A stretch of 47,883 nucleotides of DNA from a candidate division LCP-89 bacterium (lineage in GTDB: Bacteria > Electryoneota > B3-LCP). Of the stretch, positions 6,379 through 32,968 are shown piece by piece. A program made the position numbers and the translations under genes. The notes below the pieces were generated by a model. That model did not search any database and was not told the DNA's origin. It was given only the letters and a program-made list of their open reading frames with translations. Each line of letters opens with the position of its first letter. The first letter of the stretch is position 1. The stretch lies in the NCBI GenBank assembly GCA_025774555.1, contig JALGVT010000029.1, positions 1 through 47,883 of the forward strand. Reading direction: 5' to 3'.

Positions 6379-9228
6379 TTAATTCTTACTTAGTTCTGTG
6401 CGTAAGAATTGTCCTGTGTACGATTTTTTCACACGGCTTACTTCAACAGGGTTACCCTTTGCTATGACCCGTCCACCTTTGTCCCCGCCTTCAGGACCAA
6501 GATCAATGATATGATCAGCGGTTTTTATTACATCGAGGTTGTGTTCAATCACCAGCACCGTATTTCCTTTCTCGACCAGTTCGTGCAAGACGGATAGCAG
6601 CAAGCGGATATCCGCAAAATGCAAACCGGTTGTGGGTTCGTCGAGCAGGTATAAGGTATTGCCGGTCTGAACTTTGGACAATTCAGTGGAGAGTTTAACT
6701 CTCTGGGCTTCGCCGCCAGACAGCGTTGTCGCCTGCTGCCCCAGTTTGATATATCCCAATCCGACTCTGACGATAGTGTCCAGCTTTCTTTTTATAAGAG
6801 GAATGGATTCGAAGAATTCCAGCGCTTCCTCCGCTGTCATATCGAGGATGTCTGCTATTGACTTTCCTCTAAATTTAATTTCCAGTGTTTCGCGGTTGTA
6901 GCGCTTCCCATGGCAAACCTCACAAGGGACATAGACGTCGGGCAGAAAGTGCATCTCGATCTTAATGATGCCGGCTCCCTGACATGCTTCACAGCGACCA
7001 CCCTTTACGTTGAAGCTGAAACGACCCGGCTTATACCCGCGTATCTTTGAATCTTTAAGCTCAGCATAGAGATCGCGTATCGGAGCAAAAAGACCGGTGT
7101 ATGTGGCTGGATTGGAACGAGGCGTGCGTCCAATAGGGGACTGATCTATGTTAATGACCTTGTCGATGTATTCTGTGCCTTTCAGCTCGTTGTAGGGGAG
7201 AGGTCTATTTTTAGATTTATAAAACTGTTGACTTAGCGCACGGTACAATGTTTCATTGATCAAACTGGATTTACCGGAACCGGACACACCGGTAATGCAG
7301 ACGAAACTCCCTAACGGGATCTGGACATTAACAGATTTCAGGTTATTCCCAGTCGCTCCCGAAAGCGATAACTGGTAACCGTTTCCCTGACAGTATCTTT
7401 TCGGTGTTTCGATAAATTCCTTACCCGATAGAAACTGTCCCGTCAGAGATTTGGGATTGGAAGCTATTTCTTCCGGTGTGCCGCAGGCGACGACCTCACC
7501 CCCATGTCTTCCTGCTCCCGGTCCCAAATCTGCGACTACATCAGCGGAGGTAATCATTTCGCGATCGTGTTCAACTACTATGATGGTATTACCAATATCA
7601 CGCAAGCGTTTCAAAGTCTCAATCAGTCTGCGGTTATCCCGCTGGTGCAGACCAATGGAAGGTTCATCCAGAATATAGAGAACTCCCACGAGCTGTGAAC
7701 CAATCTGTGTTGCCAGACGTATGCGCTGCGCTTCGCCGCCAGATATCGTTCCGGCGGATCTGTCGAGTGTTAGATAATCCACTCCAACGTCAATCAGGAA
7801 TTCGAGGCGCGCCTTGATCTCCTTCAATATTTGGTTGGATATTATTTTTTCGACTTCGCTCATCTCCAGGTCTTTGAAGAACTGTAGAACATTACCGATA
7901 GATTTTGAGGTGAGTTCGGAAATATTCAGTTTCCCCAGTCGCACCGAGAGCGCTTCTCGTTTAAGACGCCCGCCTTTGCATTCAGAGCAGGGCAGCGAGC
8001 TCATGAAGCTCTCAATCCAATCGCGGATACCTGCAGAATTGGTCTGCCGGTATCGTCTCTTCAGATTAGGAATAGTTCCTTCCCATTTGCCCGTAAATTC
8101 CCATGATCCTCTGCCGTTTTTATGTACCAGGCGGAATTTGAATTCCTCGTCGCCGGAACCATACAGGCAGATATTTTTCTGTTCTTCCGTAAGATTTCCG
8201 AAGGGCACATCAACAGAGAAATGATGCTCTTGAGATACTTTTTCCAACATACGAAGAAAAATAGAATCGCTCCAGTTATTGGTAGTCACAATTGCGCCTT
8301 CGCGGATGGAAAGCGTTGCATCGGGAACGACTCTGCCTGGATCAATTTCTAAAGTGAAGCCCAGTCCGGAGCATTTGGGACAGGCGCCGTAAGGACTGTT
8401 GAATGAGAAACTGCGCGGCTCCAATTCTTCATAGCTTATTCCACAGTCTGCACAGGAATACTGCTCAGAGAATAGGATTTCCTTTTCATCCGGTATGCTG
8501 ATTATGACAAGTCCCGAGGCGAGTTGCAGCGCGGTTTCAACCGATTCAGTCAATCTGATTCTCAAGTCGCCTTCAACGACTAAGCGATCAACGACTACCT
8601 CGATGGAATGCTTCTTATTTCTGGACAAGCGGATTTCGTCTTCAAGTGATTTTATTTTGCTATCGACACGAACACGAAGGTAACCGTCGCGGCGCAGATT
8701 GGCGAAAACTTCACGGTATTCGCCTTTCCGCCCTCTAATTACGGGAGCGAGTACCATGAAACGGGTCAATTGAGGCAGATTCAGCACTTGATCGACTATC
8801 TGCTGGACGGATTGCTTTTCAATGGGACGACCGCAATTGTAACAGTAGGCTTTGCCAACCCGCGCATAAAGCAGGCGGAGATAATCATATATTTCTGTTA
8901 CAGTCGCAACTGTAGATCGCGGATTGCGGTGTGTTGATTTCTGTTCGATTGATATTGCTGGCGACAATCCTTCGATGAAATCGACGTCCGGTTTTTCCAT
9001 TAAACCGAGAAACTGCCGCGCGTACGCCGAGAGAGATTCCACATAACGTCTCTGACCTTCCGCATAGAGAGTATCGAAGGCGAGGGACGATTTTCCGGAA
9101 CCTGAGATGCCCGTAATCACGATCAGCTTGTTTCTCGGCAGTGTCAGATCGACGTTCTTGAGGTTGTGTTCGCGGGCGCCTTTTATTACGATGGAATCCA
9201 GTGAGGTATTTCGGTTCATTCTGATCAT
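6379..9228 (-). CDS. uvrA: Excinuclease ABC subunit A (UvrA)
   Basis: Two ABC ATPase modules ([18 protein letters not shown]) and zinc-finger cysteines, typical of UvrA. The ORF-track start at 9246 is a TTG. In-frame ATGs lie at 9228 and 9219, so the start is uncertain by a few codons. Confidence 0.9.
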
Positions 9229-9414
9229 TTGATTCTGATATAACAATGAAAGATACGAAAACTACTCAGAGAAAACAAGTGTGCACTCAATTAAAAGAGA
9301 TCGGGTATTGCTTTAGAAATCAGATGATTTCAGGTTAATGTAATAGATTAACCTTGACTTTTTCAGATAAAAGATTTATTTTTCTTTATCAGGAAGAATC
9401 ATGAATCAGAGGGA

Positions 9415-10107
9415 ATGATGAAGCGCCTTATTCTGGCATTATGTATCTTGCTTATAGCATCGAACGCCATTGCAGAAGAGATCGACGGTGAAGTGAGCGT
9501 ATCGCTTATTGACCCTTATAAAAAGTTTATCCCGGGTTTTTCGATCTCCTTCAGACCCGACATCTTAAGCTGGGATCGGATGTCTTTTGGAGCCGGAGTA
9601 TCGCTGTATGTTTCCAGCCGTTTCAATTATGAAACTACTAACTGGATATGGTATGCAAAGGGATACTATGATCCCGATTCAACGGATTGGTATTATTACG
9701 ATGAAAACCTGGTCGAGTTGGCAAATTATGAGATTTTCACAGAAAGTAGATTTCGTTTTTTAGGTAAGAGCGAAGATGATCACTGGAAAGGGTGGTTGTC
9801 ATTAAATCTTGGCGTCGTGGATCACGCATCAGCCCGTACCACATTCACTACAATTGCTGAGCAACGGGAATATGTTGACACCCTCGGAGTAACTCAATAC
9901 GAGGTTCTACAGACGGATCGATATTCAGTTGATTATAATACAGTGCACAAGCAGAGTTTCTACGCAGCGCCGGGACTTATGATTGGAATCGGTAATTTCT
10001 TCGCGGCGTATAAGCACTGGATATATTTTGACAGCCGGGATTTGATCGATGGAGAACCGTCTCAGACGCTCGGCACTATCAGGGTTGGATATAGATTTTT
10101 ATGGTGA
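9415..10107 (+). CDS. Secreted hypothetical protein, likely an outer-membrane beta-barrel (signal peptide, aromatic-rich, C-terminal ...YRFLW)
   Basis: Signal peptide MMKRLILALCILLIASNAIA. Alternating aromatic/hydrophilic pattern. C-terminal aromatic residue. SD gaggga upstream. Confidence 0.55.
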   Translation: MMKRLILALCILLIASNAIAEEIDGEVSVSLIDPYKKFIPGFSISFRPDILSWDRMSFGAGVSLYVSSRFNYETTNWIWYAKGYYDPDSTDWYYYDENLVELANYEIFTESRFRFLGKSEDDHWKGWLSLNLGVVDHASARTTFTTIAEQREYVDTLGVTQYEVLQTDRYSVDYNTVHKQSFYAAPGLMIGIGNFFAAYKHWIYFDSRDLIDGEPSQTLGTIRVGYRFLW

Positions 10108-10130
10108 TGGGGAATTAAAATAGTTATGAT

Positions 10131-10291
10131 AAAGGGGCTGTCTCAAAAGCCTATGAACTGTCATTGCTCCGAAGGAGCGCCTTTGGCGCGAACGAAGTGT
10201 GGTAATCTCTTAGTGCTTGTATAATAGGAGATTGCCACGTCATCAGCCGGACGGCTGATTCCTCGCAATGACTCGAAATTATCTTTTGGGA
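10131..10291. repeat. Nested-hairpin intergenic element, copy A. Terminal inverted repeats ggggctgtc / gacaacccc, inner stems gtcattgc/gcaatgac, ggtaatctc/gagattgcc, atcagcc/ggctgat
   Basis: Inverted repeats read directly. Shares GGGCTGTC TIRs and the gaacgaag / raatgac motifs with the element at 20172-20300. Sits between convergent gene ends. Confidence 0.55.
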
Positions 10292-10321
10292 CAACCCCTT
10301 TTATTTTAATCTGGAAAAATC

Positions 10322-10822
10322 CTATCGGTTCAATTCAGATGAACAGGAGACCAATCTCGATCCCCTTCTGATTGCCGCTTTCTCAAACCGTCTCTTTTCA
10401 TCAGGAGTTTCCGGGATTACTGACGGAATCGGCGTTGGTTTGCCTTCATCGTCGAGCGCCACAAAGGAAAGGTACGCAGAAGCGGTATGCTTGCGTGTGC
10501 CGGTCTGCGTATTTTCGGAAAATACCTTGACGCCGACTTCAAGGGAGGTTTTAAATGCGCGGTTAACGGATGCTTTCAACAACACGAGGTCGCCCATTTT
10601 TATCGGCGATAGAAAGGCAAGTGAATCCACCGCGGCAGTAACCACGAGTCGCTTGGTATGCCGGCGAGCCGCAATGGTGCCTGCGATATCAATCAACTGC
10701 ATGACCTTGCCGCCGAACAGCGTGCCGAAGTTATTCGTGTCGTTGGGCAGAACTACTTCAGTCATTTCAACAACAGAGTCCCTGACAGGTTTAGCAGGAT
10801 ATTCGGATTCGTATTTTGTCAT
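10322..10822 (-). CDS. Acyl-CoA thioesterase, hotdog fold (YciA/BFIT-like)
   Basis: Motif NxxGxLFGGxxMxxxDxAG is characteristic of acyl-CoA thioester hydrolases. Start trimmed to the ATG at 10820-10822 (MTKYESEY...) to avoid overlapping the upstream gene. Confidence 0.7.
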   Translation of the reverse strand: MTKYESEYPAKPVRDSVVEMTEVVLPNDTNNFGTLFGGKVMQLIDIAGTIAARRHTKRLVVTAAVDSLAFLSPIKMGDLVLLKASVNRAFKTSLEVGVKVFSENTQTGTRKHTASAYLSFVALDDEGKPTPIPSVIPETPDEKRRFEKAAIRRGSRLVSCSSELNR

Positions 10823-10857
10823 AGTGCAGCCCTTTTGATCGGATAGTTTGCTGATGA

Positions 10858-11190
10858 TCACTGCAGAGGTAAAAACGCTTTCATTGCGCAATAGAACACT
10901 AAAATGGTGCTAACGAGAAGCGATACCAGTGACAACCCCAACATCGTTTTCATCTTCAATGATTTTACAAAGGCATAAAAACTCAGTATCAGCGCAGGGA
11001 TAGGAAGAAAAATAATTATTGCCTTGAACAGTGATTCGGGCATATAATTCCAGAAACGGGCTGCGTATCCTATATTTCCAGTGGAGCCGGTCTGCAGCAT
11101 AAGCCAGAAGGCGAGCGGAGGCAGCAGCAGCAGGAGGGCAACCCATAGCAGGCGCTTATTGTTTCGATTGTTTTTCAGGCTATCTGTCAT
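10858..11190 (-). CDS. Small integral membrane protein (3 predicted TM helices), function unknown
   Basis: Hydrophobic segments. ATG at 11188-11190. Confidence 0.45.
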   Translation of the reverse strand: MTDSLKNNRNNKRLLWVALLLLLPPLAFWLMLQTGSTGNIGYAARFWNYMPESLFKAIIIFLPIPALILSFYAFVKSLKMKTMLGLSLVSLLVSTILVFYCAMKAFLPLQ

Positions 11191-11211
11191 TTTGAGATTT
11201 ATGGTTCACTA

Positions 11212-12615
11212 TTATAGATGAATTGCTCTGCCAAAGGCATCCAGAGCCGCTTCGGCAACAGCCTCTGAGAGAGTGGGATGAGCGTGAATAGTTGAGGTTA
11301 TCGCTTTGAACGGATCAGGCTGAAGCTGTGCCACTCCCAGTTCCGCTATAAGTTCTGTGGCTTCAGGTCCCACAATGTGAGCACCGATGAGTTTTGAGCC
11401 TGCTTCATCAAATATCAGCTTTATCAGTCCATCGCGTTCACCTGAAGCGACAGCTCTGCTGGAAGCGACGACAGGAAATCTCCCTACTTTTATTTTATAT
11501 CCACGTTCAAGAGCCTGTTTCTCGGTAAGACCCACCGAAGCAACCTGAGGCTGGCAATACGTGCATGAAGGCACCTTATCCGGTTCAACTTTGTGCGTTG
11601 ACAGTCCTGCCATATTTTCCACGGCTGCAATCCCTTCGTGTGAAGCCGCGTGCGCCAGCATCGGCGCGCCGATCAAATCGCCAATCGCCCATATATTCTC
11701 AGCGCTCGTGCAATAGACATCATCGACTTTCACAAACCCCTTTTCTATTACGATCCCGACATCTTCCAGACCTATCCCATCAGAATTTGCCTGCACGCCT
11801 ATAGCCACCAGACAGAGATCGGCTTCCCATGATTCATCACCAGCAGGTGTCGATCCAAATGCTTTCACGCCTTCAGCCGATTTTTCAATACGCTGCACTT
11901 TTGTATCAGTGAATACCTTTATCCGGTCTTTTTTTAGTTTCTTATGGACAATATCCACGATTTCTGTGTCTTCCAAGGGCAGAATCTGCGGCATCATTTC
12001 TATAAGTATGACGTCTGTCCCGATGGTGTTATAAAAATAAGCGAACTCCACGCCGATAGCTCCAGCGCCGATTATAATCATGGATTTCGGCTGCGTTGAC
12101 AGAGTCATTGCTTGACGATAAGAAATCAGCTTCTCCTCATCAAGTTCTAATCCCGGCAGGTTGCGGGGTCTTGCGCCAGTCGCCAGTAAAAACTTATTAG
12201 ACTGGATTGAAACGATCTCTTCGGCTTCGGCGTTCGATACCGCTATAGTGTGCATGTTTTTGAAACGACCTGTGCCGTTAAAAACTTCGATGTTATTCTT
12301 CTTTAACAGGAAACCGACGCCTTTTGATAGACGGCTGGCTATCTGGCGGCTGCGCTTGATTATGGCAGGGAAGTCTATTTCGATTTCGCCTGTCTTAATA
12401 CCAAAAGAATTGGATTTCTTGATAGTATTCAGGACTTCAGCGGACTTCAGTAGAGCTTTGGTGGGAATACATCCCCAGTTCAGGCAGATGCCACCGATAT
12501 TTTCTCGTTCAACGACAGCTACCTTCATTCCAAGTTGTGCGGCTCGAATGGCTGCCACATATCCGCCGGGTCCTGACCCCAGCACTGTTAGATCATATTT
12601 TTGGTTTTCTGTCAT
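11212..12615 (-). CDS. lpdA: Dihydrolipoyl dehydrogenase (E3)
   Basis: FAD-binding GSGPGGY, redox-active disulfide GGICLNWGCIPTK, and a C-terminal dimerisation-domain HAHP motif. Confidence 0.9.
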   Translation of the reverse strand: MTENQKYDLTVLGSGPGGYVAAIRAAQLGMKVAVVERENIGGICLNWGCIPTKALLKSAEVLNTIKKSNSFGIKTGEIEIDFPAIIKRSRQIASRLSKGVGFLLKKNNIEVFNGTGRFKNMHTIAVSNAEAEEIVSIQSNKFLLATGARPRNLPGLELDEEKLISYRQAMTLSTQPKSMIIIGAGAIGVEFAYFYNTIGTDVILIEMMPQILPLEDTEIVDIVHKKLKKDRIKVFTDTKVQRIEKSAEGVKAFGSTPAGDESWEADLCLVAIGVQANSDGIGLEDVGIVIEKGFVKVDDVYCTSAENIWAIGDLIGAPMLAHAASHEGIAAVENMAGLSTHKVEPDKVPSCTYCQPQVASVGLTEKQALERGYKIKVGRFPVVASSRAVASGERDGLIKLIFDEAGSKLIGAHIVGPEATELIAELGVAQLQPDPFKAITSTIHAHPTLSEAVAEAALDAFGRAIHL

Positions 12616-30196: not shown

Positions 30197-30612
30197 CAAT
30201 ATTAGTTCTTCATGCAAATCTTCCATAACAAACTCAGATGGTGTACGATGCAGTCGGATCACGCAGAATAGGTCTGTCGTTAAGTATAAATTGAAGCCCC
30301 ACGACGCAGTGACTATACTCCTTCAACTGTGTCTTTTATCATTACGGCTGGTCCAAGATTCTCACATCAGAGTCGATTATGCATAATCGTTATATTTGAG
30401 TGTTGCGACCTGCTGAGAGATGGAAGAGATAAAAAGCTGAACCACTGATTTACACTGATTATTGGATTGCACAGATTTCTTTTTTTATCATTACGGACAA
30501 GCCTGCCTGAGGCAGACGAGCCCGTCTTTAGCGGATAAAACCGACGGAGGTAATAACCAATAATGTTAGCCGAGTTCAGTAAATCCAAATTACAGCGAAG
30601 GCAAAGCACCAA

Positions 30613-30909
30613 ATGCAAGCGCCGCAAACCATATCCGGTGAGCTGGATTTTATCCTTCTTATTTATGCTGGCTATCTTATAATAACCGGCAGACCGTTTT
30701 TTCTGATCAGGATGAGACGGTGGTCATCGTGGTGGCCTGATCTGCAGAGTAAATGGTTTCAGATTGCCGGAGGAGTTTATCTTTCGGAATTCCTGCTCTT
30801 TCTCTTTATCCCGGGTATACCTTATGAAATTGACATCGTTTTTATGATAATCGCCGGGATTCTATTCTTAATCGGTGTTTGTGCCGCTTTACAAAAGCCG
30901 ATTTATTGA
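30613..30909 (+). CDS. Hypothetical small membrane protein (weak call)
   Basis: An ORF with 2-3 hydrophobic helices upstream of tmRNA. No recognisable motifs or SD. Confidence 0.25.
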   Translation: MQAPQTISGELDFILLIYAGYLIITGRPFFLIRMRRWSSWWPDLQSKWFQIAGGVYLSEFLLFLFIPGIPYEIDIVFMIIAGILFLIGVCAALQKPIY

Positions 30910-31016
30910 CAGGCTGCTAATTATAAAAATGTTGAAAATTCTGGGGAAAGCTCATTCTTATAGAAAGAGTACTTGCTTTTTTCTGTTTTTATTAGTACAT
31001 TACAGTTGCAACTAAT

Positions 31017-31375
31017 GGGGACGACTTGGTTTCGACGGGATAGGAGGAAGCTGGATCAGCAGGTCGGGGAGAGCGTGACCCCGTTAAAACCCGCTAAATT
31101 CACAAATGCCGAAAATAACGGCTATGCCTTAGCTGCTTAAAAAAAAGCGGCTACGTCCGACCGAACCTTCGCCCATCTGGGACGGATTCGGGCGACATCT
31201 CGATGGGCTGGCGTGACGCAGTGTCTCGATGCGCCGCGTGAGAACTACGAGACTGGCTTTTCTTTCGATCTGTCGATGGATTAAAAGGAAGGCGAGACTT
31301 AAACATCGACTAAGCCTGTAGCGGGTCCTTCAGTCACTATTTCGGACGCGGGTTCGATTCCCGCCGTCTCCACAA
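31017..31375 (+). ncRNA. ssrA: tmRNA (SsrA), one-piece. Tag peptide reading frame ...AENNGYALAA* (gcc gaa aat aac ggc tat gcc tta gct gct taa at 31108-31140)
   Basis: 5' GGGGACGACUUGGUUUCGACGGG pairs with the 3' ...GGACGCGGGUUCGAUUCCCGCCGUCUCCA(CAA) tRNA-like acceptor/T-arm. The internal ORF ends in the canonical YALAA tag. Confidence 0.9.
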
Positions 31376-31694
31376 ATGCTAAAATTAATCCCCTGATAAC
31401 AATTACCATGTATGATTACTTTGTATGTTTTGAAAGGGAAAGCCGGAAAACGATATGTCGGGATAACGAATAATATAATGTAGTCGAATTATCGGTAATT
31501 TCAGTTTAATCCACACAGAGACTTTCCCTGATTATAAAAGTGCCAGGGAACGGGAAAAGTTCTTAAAATCGGGTAAGGGAAGAAACTGGTTAAATGATTT
31601 TGTAGAAACGACGCAGCCCGCCTGAGGCGGGTAAAGTTCGACTTGTGCGCCTTAGGCGCATTCCGCCTTAGGCGCATTCCCGCCGTCTCCACAA
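31376..31694 (+). mobile_element. Integration scar at the ssrA 3' end. A 300-bp insert is bounded by a 19-nt direct repeat of the tmRNA 3' terminus (attcccgccgtctccacaa at 31357-31375 and 31676-31694), with a perfect 16-nt tandem duplication (gccttaggcgcattcc x2, 31649-31680)
   Basis: Exact 19-nt and 16-nt repeats read directly. The displaced copy is followed by what looks like the original ssrA terminator. This is the standard signature of site-specific integration into tmRNA. No integrase gene is present, so it is a remnant. Confidence 0.6.
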
Positions 31695-31696
31695 GG

Positions 31697-31734
31697 AAGC
31701 CACTTCACTCATTGGGGGAGTGGCTTTTATTATA
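31697..31734 (+). terminator. Intrinsic terminator: 9-bp stem aagccactt / gagtggctt followed by a T-run (ttttattat)
   Basis: Read directly. Lies immediately after the displaced tmRNA 3'-end repeat. Confidence 0.55.
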
Positions 31735-31744
31735 CGGATATACT

Positions 31745-32968
31745 ATGAACGATCTACTTATCTGCATCGACCGCAAGGATTTTCCAGCGGCTATACCACA
31801 TAAATTCTATCTCCCTGAATCGTCGCCTGTAGTCTGCTGTGGTCCCGTCGAGATTTTGCAAGGTAAACGTGTTACCATCCTTAATTCCCGCCAATCACCA
31901 CGACTGCATAAGGATAGCGCCTGGGCATTGAACACCATAAAGGCGCTGCGAAATCTCGATCCCAAAGAGACAACTCTGGTCACCAGTCTGGGAACTATCG
32001 CCTGGGATTTCCTTACCTGGACAGGGGGTAAGCTGAGGTTTAAGATAATACTTGTATTCCCCGGTGGAAGCGCTCAGAATTTCAAGCTGTCGCGAACCAG
32101 AGCAATTATGGATCTGGGATTGGATGATCGAATGACACTCGCAATTCGACCGCTGGTGCTTAAGAGCTACAAAAAAAAGAGCGAAGTAAATGCACTACGT
32201 GATCAGTGGATTGTTTCGCTGAGTCATACGATCATGCCATTAAGCGTGCGGACGGGCGGTAATCTCGATACATATTTAAATAGCGCACAACTTAAAACTA
32301 CTGCTGTTTGCCGCGATTATGCAATTCAATATGAAAAGCTTCACCAAGAGCGGAAACCATCTCTGCCGAAGAAGATTGTCACTCCCGAATGGTACAAGAC
32401 AAACGACTTCCTCATCCATTGGACGAGATCGTGCGTCGGTCCCTGGCCTGATGAAAGCAGAGCAGAGCACTTTGAAAGGGTAGTCGCATCAGGTGATTCC
32501 GGCTTGAGCGGGTTGGATACATTGAGACGAATCATCAAAGAGGGAGTTATTCGTGCTTCAAGCAGGTTGATAAGAGACAAGTATGAAGTTGTCCCCTTTA
32601 CTGAAACTTTACCGCAGGAACTCCCTGATTTGATACGATGGCGAGCAGGTCTGCGCAGGTGGACTTTTGAACCTTACGGAATCGCTCTGGCGAGATCTAA
32701 ACTACTTGAAATACGGGCTAAGCCGGTCATATATGGTGATATCAGAGATTATGAAGCGATGTCTGAGGAAGATAAGCCTTTTTTCCAAGTGGCAGGAACA
32801 GGGAAACGGGATTGGAAAAAGGAGAGGGAATGGAGGGTTCAAGGCGACGTTAAACTAAGTTTATTTGGTAAAAATGAAGCTGTCTATATTGTCAACAATA
32901 TAGACGCAGTACAGTCGCTGCGGGAATTGAATACTCATCAGGTTTTAAGTTTAAGTCCGCATGAATAA
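31745..32968 (+). CDS. Divergent DprA/SLOG-superfamily Rossmann-domain protein fused to an uncharacterised ~200-aa C-terminal domain
   Basis: N-terminal half is collinear with DprA Rossmann motifs in degenerate form: NSRQSPR for GSRxxSxYG, TTLVTSLGTIAW for VVSGlAxGID, GGKLRFKIILVFPGG for GGxTIAVLGxG, FKLSRTRAIMDLG for FpxRNRIIagL. The C-terminal half (HWTRS...EPYGIALARS...EWRVQGDVKL) matches nothing recognised. The ORF-track start at 31643 overlaps the att repeat and terminator, so the ATG at 31745 is used. Confidence 0.5.
   Translation: MNDLLICIDRKDFPAAIPHKFYLPESSPVVCCGPVEILQGKRVTILNSRQSPRLHKDSAWALNTIKALRNLDPKETTLVTSLGTIAWDFLTWTGGKLRFKIILVFPGGSAQNFKLSRTRAIMDLGLDDRMTLAIRPLVLKSYKKKSEVNALRDQWIVSLSHTIMPLSVRTGGNLDTYLNSAQLKTTAVCRDYAIQYEKLHQERKPSLPKKIVTPEWYKTNDFLIHWTRSCVGPWPDESRAEHFERVVASGDSGLSGLDTLRRIIKEGVIRASSRLIRDKYEVVPFTETLPQELPDLIRWRAGLRRWTFEPYGIALARSKLLEIRAKPVIYGDIRDYEAMSEEDKPFFQVAGTGKRDWKKEREWRVQGDVKLSLFGKNEAVYIVNNIDAVQSLRELNTHQVLSLSPHE

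Follow-up and report, generated by a model that had tools for sequence, protein, structure and literature searches.

The tmRNA gene (ssrA) of a candidate division LCP-89 bacterium and the gene downstream of it are best explained as the setting of two adjacent, unrelated features: an inactivated copy of a tiny mobile element with a GIY-YIG nuclease gene, and an ancestral gene encoding a DprA-like domain fused to an ADP-ribosyltransferase (ART)-fold domain. This explanation is favored with modest confidence, as somewhat better than an even chance. The window, i.e., the whole 47,883-nt stretch of DNA that was analyzed, had previously been given a sequence-only reading in which an integrase had left its scar in ssrA and the gene past the scar was a candidate defense or signaling component at an integration hotspot.

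The gene downstream of ssrA encodes a protein of two domains, as follows.

31745-32968 (including the stop codon), forward strand: 407-aa two-domain protein (open reading frame list, homologue starts)
31745-32293, forward strand: DprA-like Rossmann/SLOG domain, residues ~1-183, with a linker following (fold comparison)
32405-32965, forward strand: ADP-ribosyltransferase-fold domain, residues ~221-407 (fold comparison)

Reading from the TTG at 31643 gives the longest frame, 441 aa, and the protein had earlier been counted at 408 aa; since the homologues all begin at the methionine of MNDL or MSDL, its length is 407 aa. The N-terminal half, described earlier as DprA/SLOG-like, has a Rossmann-type DprA fold. 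The DprA motifs were mapped through an alignment of the relative P0052 with ShosA, the E-value of 0.17 for P0052 against the PDB being used for mapping only. Of the motif changes described previously, GSR to NSR (N47-S48-R49) and the loss of GxD (GID is replaced by T-I-A-W in the window protein) were borne out, whereas RNR to RTR was a misalignment: the RNR position is R152-D153-Q154, for which most relatives have RDR, and the second SLOG glycine motif is formed by R169-T-G-G-N.

The C-terminal half had been said to match nothing recognizable, and neither the 407-aa protein nor its C-domain has a match in Pfam, PADLOC, NCBIfam, or PHROGs; likewise, a PDB sequence search with the family profile returned nothing meaningful. 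At the level of structure, the C-domain is modeled with an ADP-ribosyltransferase fold whose nearest counterparts are DarT and Tpt1; the catalytic Glu lies on beta5 and the His on beta1, and its H-x-T-R, Y, and E-x-E-W-R motifs are invariant. The possibility raised earlier, that this part is the DprA winged helix, did not hold: there is no PF17782 match, and the ~190 C-terminal residues model as an ART. Across the family, S48, H225, T227, G312, Y330, W357, E360, E362, and R364 are invariant, and R49, D153, R169, G172, and R228 are conserved in at least 90% of members.

At E ≤ 1e-30, the family counts no fewer than 1,473 representatives, spread over Zixibacteria, Ignavibacteria, Calditrichota, Thermodesulfobacteriota, Planctomycetota, and others; Desulfomonile and Schlesneria are among its cultured carriers, and complete carrier genomes include CP070796.1, OY760907.1, CAXXEQ010000001.1, and JAWLBI010000001.1. 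Loci were scanned with a 22-sequence alignment, the 51-sequence alignment being too divergent. In the window, the neighbors of the gene are rlmN, moxR, and ssrA, and the order ssrA-gene-rlmN-moxR-DUF58-S49 is kept in eight relatives, including genomes whose ssrA site is empty of the element. Because the gene stands in the same place in these empty-site relatives, it is not cargo of the element, nor is it the hotspot gene it had been taken for; its synteny is conserved and of a housekeeping kind. The gene is the ancestral neighbor of ssrA in LCP-89, Zixibacteria, and relatives, and the adjacency is absent in all other clades. In Thermodesulfobacteriota, and in that clade only, the DNA-uptake genes comEC and pilD (prepilin peptidase) adjoin the family gene, and no partner gene is conserved across clades in the 84 loci scanned. 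The sole extra match to an HMM of the N-domain was a split fragment of the family gene itself (L079).

The fold assignments, conservation, and synteny are established by these comparisons; from here on we infer the enzymatic activity, the substrate, and the biological role, which may lie either in DNA uptake or repair or in conflict. Most likely, the protein functions as a predicted nucleic-acid-directed ADP-ribosyltransferase. Specifically, the DprA-like domain, which appears to keep GSR-type Ser-Arg and RNR-type Arg motifs, would bind single-stranded nucleic acid and present the strand to the ART domain, which would then transfer ADP-ribose from NAD+ onto it. Nucleic acid as the substrate is a tentative assignment, placed clearly below an even chance. 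A DprA-tethered ART may modify ssDNA as a normal chromosomal function in uptake or repair.

A different function would follow if the protein were the DprA of its lineage, i.e., a RecA loader on incoming ssDNA whose ART-like fold is a non-catalytic binding module. The DprA fold of the N-domain, with Ser-Arg and Arg-Asp/Asn-Arg motifs kept, is consistent with this, as are the single, vertically inherited gene in core neighborhoods, the adjoining comEC and prepilin peptidase genes of Thermodesulfobacteriota, and, weakly, the lack of any canonical DprA seen with the N-domain HMM over ~1 Mb of locus flanks. Two distant relatives, P0047 and P0052, pass the PF02481 threshold (30.9 and 32.3 versus 29.6 bits); however, even the closest members, these two among them, reach just 22-33 bits on the dprA equivalog TIGR00732 against a cutoff of 191 bits, the window protein has no DprA match at E ≤ 1 in Pfam or NCBIfam, and GxD is lost. 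Moreover, the strictest invariants of the whole family (H225, T227, Y330, E360, E362, and R364) fall in the C-domain, at ART catalytic positions, which argues for an enzyme and against a scaffold, and a DprA role in this form is judged unlikely.

Rather unlikely, too, is a one-polypeptide conflict module, in which a DarT/AbiGi-like ART toxin would be governed by its own DprA/ShosA-like or SLOG sensor, the latter restraining or triggering the toxin on phage ssDNA or on a nucleotide signal. The only sequence-level link for the C-domain is to AbiGi, which 7 of 51 family members match weakly; P0056 alone passes PF10899 (23.8 versus 22.4 bits), the six others fall below threshold, and the match lies over a strand-helix-strand segment with an FxEPYGI motif, covering ~50 of 185 profile positions. 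The genomic context had been proposed as one of defense, but no defense island was found in the 84 loci, nor was a macrodomain or NADAR (ADP-ribose hydrolase) partner found among their annotated recurrent neighbor families. The combination that marks a ThsA-type SLOG nucleotide sensor, namely a place in the sensor clade together with linked signal or effector genes in a defense locus, was likewise not found for this family.

An RNA-directed activity, in which the ART domain acts like Tpt1/KptA in 2′-phosphate removal or 5′-phosphate capping during RNA repair or maturation, would fit the neighbors ssrA and rlmN but is improbable: ssrA adjacency is gone in all other clades, the closest relatives of the N-domain are ssDNA binders, and, in structure comparisons of the C-domain, DarT aligns over 128-131 residues with a higher score, versus 97 residues for Tpt1.

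Upstream of this gene, the ssrA locus is arranged as follows.

31017-31375, forward strand: intact ssrA, tmRNA (ARAGORN, tag AENNGYALAA; Rfam RF00023)
31357-31375, forward strand: repeat copy 1, the final 19 nt of ssrA (exact match)
31376-31675, forward strand: 300-nt insert, putative decayed GIY-YIG mini-element (translation, comparison with relatives' sites)
31412-31634, forward strand: GIY-YIG nuclease pseudogene (tblastn with family consensus; Pfam PF01541; alignment to the L011 element)
31616-31632, forward strand: element hairpin 1, GCCCGCC-TGA-GGCGGGT (alignment and RNAalifold)
31643-31660, forward strand: element terminal hairpin 3, TTGTGCGCC-TTA-GGCGCA (motif count, alignment)
31648-31679, forward strand: perfect 16-nt tandem duplication, 2 x CGCCTTAGGCGCATTC (direct comparison; single copy in L011)
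31676-31694, forward strand: repeat copy 2, the displaced ssrA 3′ end, bounding the element on its right (exact match)
31697-31731, forward strand: putative ancestral ssrA intrinsic terminator, AAGCCACT...AGTGGCTTTT (hairpin with T tract, homology to relatives)

The tmRNA gene is full length and not truncated (Rfam RF00023, 197 bits, model positions 1-374), and its 3′ end is genome-encoded as ...CAA, not CCA, as is also the case in the relatives L001 and L002. The first repeat copy covers the end of the T-loop, the 3′ strand of the T-stem, and the 3′ strand of the acceptor. The 19-mer, ATTCCCGCCGTCTCCACAA, occurs exactly twice within the window, with 300 nt between the copies (31376-31675) and 319 nt from start to start; the chance expectation for its recurrence is 0 in 100 shuffles, even with two mismatches tolerated. 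A recount of the sequence bore out the earlier description of this duplication, its spacing, and the terminator beyond it, and confirmed a perfect tandem 16-mer at 31648-31663 and 31664-31679. The terminator past the second 19-mer is homologous to the hairpin directly 3′ of ssrA in L002, where the site is empty, and the same homologue stands 3′ of the element in L011; by this homology, it is evidently the original ssrA terminator.

The 300-nt insert is, judging from its sequence, the dead remnant of a tiny mobile element. Its pseudogene encodes a GIY-YIG nuclease in two different frames, 31412-31477 giving residues 1-22 and 31494-31631 giving residues 41-86, a 38-nt deletion having taken out residues 23-40; a premature in-frame TGA (31623-31625) precedes the ancestral stop codon, TAA, at 31632-31634. 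The match has a combined E-value of 5e-22 by tblastn with the family consensus, a PF01541 match above cutoff (E 7.8e-5, 23.3 versus 22.6 bits), and 57% identity to the intact 86-aa nuclease P0065 (E 1e-18). Hairpin 1 comprises 7 pairs, with a compensatory CG->UA change in three sequences of the element alignment (RNAalifold). It is conserved in the family, overlaps the end of the nuclease ORF, and contains the nuclease stop codon; it is this segment that had been read, mistakenly, as a degenerate tRNA-like arm. The 16-nt tandem, which spans most of hairpin 3 plus ATTC and is specific to the window, is a slippage duplication in the terminal hairpin. A search of Rfam at E ≤ 10 over 30200-31800 gave no match for the insert. 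A hairpin resembling those of the element was also observed at 30500-30517, and a second GIY-YIG copy, sought in the window by tblastn on account of it, was not found.

Related elements are found at dozens of other loci. The nuclease has 147 homologues of 83-120 aa, all with PF01541 (best E 1e-18), in whose alignment the GxY...YxG, R, E, and N positions are kept; the nuclease scores just 15.9 bits on TIGR01453. The element measures ~0.35-0.45 kb when complete and carries a ~86-aa GIY-YIG nuclease (83-92 aa) as its sole gene. At 51 of 83 related loci, the distance to an upstream tRNA or tmRNA gene is below 400 nt, and the flanking repeat of greatest length falls within the 3′ part of that t(m)RNA; the start of the repeat is at -22 in 24 loci, and its end coincides with the t(m)RNA 3′ end in 24. 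Besides tmRNA, the targets are tRNA genes for Pro, Glu, Ala, Val, Leu, Ser, and Gly. For example, intact copies in L008 and L010 follow tRNA-Pro and are flanked by exact repeats (23 and 31 nt) of the 3′ end of that tRNA. In this design, the t(m)RNA gene is left intact, and a partial second copy, from T-loop to 3′ end, stands at the far end of the element.

Hairpin 3 (TTGTGCGCC-N3-GGCGCA) is nearly invariant in the family and abuts the duplicated t(m)RNA T-loop; its exact motif is present in 55 of the 83 related loci, with TTCRA... nearly always next, and at 28 of 41 junctions the 5-7 nt ahead of the hairpin equal the 5′ strand of the local tRNA T-stem. Two further readings of the right end were considered and rejected. 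A full tRNA-like fold, in which the acceptor 3′ strand would pair with the end of the ORF, was discarded since, in elements targeting Ala, Gly, and Glu tRNAs, that ORF segment does not covary with the target, and a 5-nt (TTCGA) deletion at the window junction was discarded because L011 has the identical junction and TTCGA lies across the hairpin. Examination of the same ssrA locus in relatives, suggested earlier as a check, yielded both filled and empty alleles: the closest relative, L011, possesses an intact element and a solo remnant, and the site is empty in L002, L012, and L015.

These findings bear directly on the earlier view that a tyrosine-integrase island entered ssrA and left attL/attR, with the SLOG-like gene as a hotspot defense or signaling gene. 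Integrase islands leave direct repeats of the tmRNA 3′ end beginning in the T-loop, and the repeat seen here has that form. The spacer between ssrA and the 407-aa gene varies among relatives as well, from 52 nt (L002) and 222 nt (L001) to 851 nt in L014, where it holds a methyltransferase-like ORF, and 3.6 kb in L004, where it holds three genes, and the structural neighbors ShosA and DarT, together with the weak AbiGi matches of relatives, belong to phage-defense systems. However, the scar reading fails because the entire 300-nt insert is a frameshifted GIY-YIG pseudogene and no integrase was found, either among the window ORFs scanned on Pfam or recurring beside the gene in relatives. The same repeat design accompanies a nuclease gene, and no integrase, at eight kinds of target in 51 loci; the 407-aa gene stands in the same place in empty-site genomes (46-63% identity) between conserved flanking genes; and PADLOC gave no match. 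The integrase and hotspot reading is therefore already largely refuted and is considered highly improbable. That the 19-nt and 16-nt repeats are chance or assembly artifacts has a negligible probability and is already refuted for the 19-mer: the window does come from a metagenome assembly, in which repeats can mis-assemble, but no chance matches are expected for the 19-mer, the independent, separately assembled MAG L011 shares the element, junction sequence, terminator, and site, and dozens of further loci possess the identical design.

How the dead mini-element and its relatives may move can be stated as a best guess. The nuclease would cut the tDNA at the 5′ border of the TTC conserved in the T-loop, and homing-type repair or ligation would then install the element, which would bring its own replacement 3′ end. 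The homing endonuclease I-TevI cuts about 23-25 nt away from its insertion site, and this distance fits the ~22 nt that separate the T-loop from the 3′ end of the tRNA. Such elements could represent a new minimal class of mobile element, consisting of one 83-92-aa GIY-YIG nuclease and three hairpins, which may use the 53/54 border of the T-loop as the entry point into t(m)RNA genes and restore the gene with sequence that matches the target, without a recombinase. If autonomous, the element would rank among the smallest protein-coding mobile elements, with an unusual, structure-defined target, the T-arm. The mini-element also accounts for short “att-like” repeats flanking t(m)RNA genes that annotation pipelines would call integrase scars. 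In the window, the 19-nt repeat is uninformative on the origin of the 407-aa gene.

Bacterial DNA ADP-ribosylation is known from toxins, such as DarT and pierisin-like enzymes, that need an antidote. If the assignment made here is true, a large, vertically inherited DprA-ART family with no antidote gene would suggest regulated, physiological ADP-ribosylation of nucleic acids, possibly of incoming or repair-intermediate ssDNA. It would also place DarT-like chemistry outside the toxin-antitoxin and defense setting and would show a reuse of DprA-like modules for targeting. Searches of the literature found no description of a DprA-ART fusion or of a tRNA-associated GIY-YIG element of this design. 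The chance that at least one of the two proposals, i.e., the mini-element class or the DprA-tethered physiological ART, is both true as stated and new to the literature is put at a little under even.

Among known protein systems, the 407-aa protein differs from DprA/Smf (PF02481, TIGR00732) by its missing sequence-level match and lost GxD, and by having neither a SAM domain nor a C-terminal winged helix, in whose place the ART-fold domain stands. The nearest structural relative of the N-domain is ShosA (PDB 8zva, 9vzo), the DprA-like antitoxin of ShosTA. ShosA is paired with the phosphoribosyltransferase toxin ShosT in a two-gene mobile defense operon, whereas the window gene has no ShosT-like neighbor, and its DprA-like domain is fused to a partner with another fold. 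Unlike DarT1/DarT2 of DarTG, the 407-aa gene has no DarG macrodomain or NADAR antitoxin gene nearby and lies outside a toxin-antitoxin or defense context, and its product possesses an ExE-W-R motif and a fused N-terminal domain; the DarT family PF14487 (DUF4433) has no match at E ≤ 1 in the window protein and 51 relatives. AbiGi (PF10899) is a poorly studied ART-like family of the lactococcal AbiG abortive-infection system, from which the window protein is set apart by the lack of a PF10899 match of its own, of an AbiGii partner, and of a plasmid or phage-defense context. Finally, Tpt1/KptA differs in its shorter aligned region (97 residues) and in its N-terminal winged-helix lobe, which is absent here.

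The mini-element shares with tyrosine-integrase islands and prophages in tRNA and tmRNA genes the direct repeat of the 3′ part of the gene from the T-loop, the restored gene, and the displaced fragment at the far end beside the old terminator; unlike them, it has no integrase and no cargo and totals 0.3-0.45 kb. With free-standing GIY-YIG homing endonucleases, such as T4 SegB in a tRNA gene cluster and I-TevI, it has in common a GIY-YIG sole gene, an association with tRNA genes, and presence or absence at one site among relatives. In contrast to SegB and I-TevI, its protein of 83-92 aa is the catalytic domain alone and is too short for a separate DNA-binding domain. The element is further distinguished by the target-specific, duplicated tRNA 3′ part that flanks it, broken by an invariant hairpin, and by its residence in bacterial chromosomes at eight kinds of t(m)RNA target.

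The tmRNA gene ssrA is intact in the window, matching the full Rfam RF00023 model at 197 bits and encoding the tag peptide AENNGYALAA (ARAGORN). Its final 19 nt, ATTCCCGCCGTCTCCACAA, occur only twice in the window (31357-31375 and 31676-31694), with exactly 300 nt between the copies; in 100 shuffles, even with two mismatches permitted, no such repeat is expected.

Features at the ssrA locus of the window
31017-31375, + strand: intact ssrA (tmRNA), identified by ARAGORN and Rfam RF00023
31648-31679: perfect 16-nt tandem repeat
31697-31731: terminator-like hairpin with a T tract

A sequence-only reading had described this site accurately overall, apart from a one-residue error in the length of the gene downstream and one misaligned motif, and had taken the repeat for an integrase scar. 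Judged by its coding content, the insert is instead a GIY-YIG nuclease gene that has become a pseudogene. It reads MITLYVLKGKAGKRYVGITNNI in one frame and, 16 bases on, GNFSLIHTETFPDYKSAREREKFLKSGKGRNWLNDFVETTQPA*GG* in a second, matches Pfam PF01541 (E 7.8e-5), and is found by tblastn with the GIY-YIG family consensus (E 5e-22). The joined fragment retrieved 147 homologues of 83-120 aa, all with PF01541 (best match 57% identity, E 1e-18), and 30 of these show a mean column identity of 70%. Relative to an intact copy, the window gene is missing 38 nt, equivalent to residues 23-40 and including conserved Arg, Glu and His positions, and it carries a frameshift and a TGA three codons ahead of the normal stop. 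No integrase lies between the two repeats because the insert contains only this pseudogene; likewise, none was seen among the window ORFs scanned on Pfam. The tmRNA genes of the lineage (window 31017-31375 and the relatives' loci L001 and L002) encode ...TCCACAA or ...TCCAC, as opposed to ...TCCACCA, and the CCA end must therefore be completed after transcription; since the duplicated 3' copy has the same CAA, DNA rather than mature RNA was the source of the repeat. Upstream of ssrA, an exact 14-nt repeat, TTTTATCATTACGG, occurs at 30334-30347 and 30483-30496, 149 nt apart, and a hairpin (GCCTGCC-TGA-GGCAGAC, 30500-30517) resembling hairpin 1 of the element described below comes after the second copy; no GIY-YIG remnant was found near 30334-30517.

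Relatives of the insert are mini-elements of 0.3-0.45 kb that sit directly 3' of tRNA or tmRNA genes and whose sole gene encodes an 83-92-aa GIY-YIG nuclease (L091-L170, L008-L010 and L011:5533-5950). For example, the intact copies at L008 and L010 directly follow tRNA-Pro(TGG), with exact repeats of the tRNA 3' end, 23 nt and 31 nt long, on either side. Alignment of the nuclease protein retrieved 80 metagenome loci, and each was examined computationally for its closest tRNA upstream and for the longest exact repeat on either side of the nuclease gene. A same-strand tRNA or tmRNA gene lay within 400 nt upstream, with the repeat in its 3' part, at 51 of 83 loci. The repeat began 22 nt before the tRNA end, at T54 of the T-loop, in 24 loci (range -24 to -9), and stopped at the exact tRNA 3' end in 24, extending up to +19 in others. 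The targets were Pro (27), Glu (11), Ala (6) and Val (3), together with Leu, Ser, Gly and tmRNA. Among the other loci, many are truncated by a contig end yet possess tRNA-3'-like repeats, and others have tandem copies; tandem or nested elements occur at L094, L097, L122, L123, L126 and L140.

The right end of the element is conserved and folds into three hairpins (alignment and RNAalifold).

Hairpins of the element's right end
Hairpin 1: GCCCGCC-N3-GGCGGG then TAAAGC; includes the stop codon; compensatory changes are seen
Hairpin 2: variable in sequence
Hairpin 3: TTGTGCGCC-N3-GGCGCA; almost invariant, adjoining the TTCRA... of the duplicated T-loop

Hairpin 1 accounts for the supposed tRNA-like arm at 31616-31632. 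At 28 of 41 testable junctions, the 5-7 nt ahead of hairpin 3 are identical to the 5' strand of the T-stem in the local tRNA, regardless of which tRNA it is, and the two T-stem halves pair around hairpin 3 with 7-9 compensatory changes (RNAalifold). These target-matched halves indicate that the partial copy comprises the T-arm and the acceptor 3' strand, split between nucleotides 53 and 54. In the ssrA sub-lineage, hairpin 3 is placed 5 nt deeper in the T-loop (after GGTTCGA) than in tRNA elements, and the exact repeat is consequently 19 nt rather than ~23 nt. Under the favoured view, the nuclease would cut at the 5' edge of the T-loop TTC, the element would provide a replacement 3' end for the cut gene, and break repair would spread it from allele to allele. 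However, no known GIY-YIG mechanism explains why the sequence on either side of hairpin 3 matches the target. No Rfam family covers the right end, no published description of the element was found in the literature searched, and a survey of the GIY-YIG superfamily does not mention tRNA association.

Comparison with relatives bears on both the insertion and the 407-aa T gene downstream (31745-32968, +), which encodes a DprA-like Rossmann/SLOG domain joined to an ADP-ribosyltransferase (ART)-fold domain. Empty sites are present at L002, L012 and L015; at L002, whose T protein is 48% identical, a hairpin homologous to the window terminator comes straight after ssrA, and the T gene comes next. The closest relative, L011 (63% identity, an independent MAG), possesses an intact 86-aa GIY-YIG gene and a solo right-end remnant at the same site, with the same junction as the window (...GTTCGAC-TTGTGCGCC-N3-GGCGCA-TTCCCGCCGTCTCCACAA) and a homologous terminator next. 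The remnant (L011:5533-5617; ~47 nt, hairpin 3 and TTCCCGCCGTCTCCAC) separates ssrA from the intact element, showing that two or more insertions have occurred here in succession. The tandem 16-mer is not present in L011, and that of the window is thus a local duplication within hairpin 3.

The longest T frame opens within the repeat region, with a TTG at position 31643, and its homologues all start at the methionine at 31745, giving a protein of 407 aa. The order ssrA-T-rlmN(-)-moxR-DUF58-S49 peptidase recurs in L001/L013 (LCP-89), L002/L016, L004/L017 (Zixibacteria), L011, L012, L014 (Calditrichota) and L015, with small lineage-specific insertions interrupting ssrA-T or T-rlmN. As this order is kept even at the empty sites, the earlier argument from hotspot cargo falls away, and the T gene is, on synteny, not cargo of the element. 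The ssrA-T spacer holds three inserted genes (GDSL-like, methyltransferase and PMT_2) at L004:4362-8000 and a methyltransferase-like ORF at L014:812-1662, and at L001, whose spacers lie at 7779-8000 and 9351-11919, two Por_Secre_tail genes separate T and rlmN; none of these insertions has an ssrA-end repeat. In the window, a 16-nt inverted repeat (32971-32986/33115-33130; 94% complementary, with 128 nt between its arms) encloses the entire intergenic region of the convergent T and rlmN genes, and could represent either a long bidirectional terminator or a small insert of MITE type. Nearby window genes are housekeeping: ribonucleotide reductase, OadB, carboxyltransferase, MiaB-like, LapB-like, SPOR protein, SppA and SelA.

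A word-indexed search found 64 T-family proteins, and a profile search 2,858 cluster representatives at E<=1e-3 (1,473 at E<=1e-30). Two narrow peptide patterns located 309 loci in GTDB species genomes, spanning Zixibacteria, LCP-89, Calditrichota, Ignavibacteria, Latescibacteria, Poribacteria, Thermodesulfobacteriota, Nitrospirota, Planctomycetota and some Alphaproteobacteria. Clustering of neighbours across 84 loci, with annotation of recurrent families, revealed clade-specific synteny only: comEC(-) | rodZ-u116-T-pilD(A24)-pstS in ~18-21 Thermodesulfobacteriota loci, xseB-x-T-y-nrdR in Planctomycetota, and genes of the cell envelope or of metabolism in other loci. In 13 Thermodesulfobacteriota loci, a conserved ~116-aa protein that matches nothing in Pfam or NCBIfam is encoded between rodZ and T (just upstream of T in, for example, L026-L028, L037, L040, L049, L051, L066, L068, L079 and L082) and is a possible partner of T there. 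One MAG, MFD01872.bin.2.170, has two T-family members (403 and 518 aa; L055 and L067) on two contigs, each in a comEC-rodZ...pilD context, reflecting either a mixed bin or a duplicated locus. At L079 (5677-6132, 6001-7185; Deltaproteobacteria MAG), a frameshift has apparently broken T into two parts, an N-terminal one of 151 aa and another of 366 aa.

The AlphaFold2 model of the T protein, built with 51 homologues, has a pLDDT of 93.8 and a pTM of 0.89. The proposed DprA/SLOG-like N-domain was upheld, as was the view that T is the most interesting of the uncharacterised genes in the part examined. Motifs were mapped through an alignment of the family relative P0052 with ShosA, the DprA-like antitoxin of the ShosTA defence system: NSR (47-49) is equivalent to G-S/T-R, SS.G...W to SG.A.GID with GID lost, and R152-D-Q/R to RNR. 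The C-domain, previously deemed unrecognisable, matches Pfam AbiGi in 7 of 51 family members (one above threshold), and AbiGi has been placed among ART-like families (PMC12522546). Strictly invariant family residues cluster in this domain (H225, T227, G312, Y330, W357, E360, E362 and R364), and R228 is kept in at least 90% of members. In the model, these residues map to beta1 (IHWTR), to the segment following beta4 (PVIY) and to the beginning of beta5 (EREWR), with T286 on beta2. DarT enzymes, which are ssDNA ADP-ribosyltransferases, have His, Tyr or Ser, and Glu at corresponding positions (PMC11543638). This equivalence is inferred from strand order in the predicted structure, and the invariant pattern argues for an active enzyme.

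The C-domain's nearest relatives act on ssDNA bases or nucleic-acid ends. DprA and ShosA bind ssDNA (PMC11961720). On the simplest reading, T would be an ADP-ribosyltransferase directed at nucleic acid, with the DprA-like domain providing the substrate, and action on a nucleic-acid substrate is tentatively proposed. It is rather unlikely that T amounts in essence to the DprA of the lineage, its C-domain having no catalytic function; the invariant residues favour catalysis. In one clade T lies close to comEC and pilD, a hint of a part in DNA uptake, though this may be inherited synteny. A self-contained conflict module is somewhat more doubtful still. No recurrent integrase, macrodomain, NADAR or defence gene was found among annotated neighbour families at the 84 loci. 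A role on RNA like that of the 2'-phosphotransferase Tpt1 is improbable.

Taken together, the T fusion and the mini-element are both real and widespread, every functional statement about them drawing on comparative and predicted-structure evidence, and the mini-element may be the more unusual discovery of the two. No description of a DprA-ART fusion was found in the literature searched; the architecture is a new combination of components from known superfamilies. The core-gene behaviour of T, and the lack of a hydrolase partner among the annotated neighbours, accord more readily with a regulated or non-toxic reaction than with a toxin of the DarT type.
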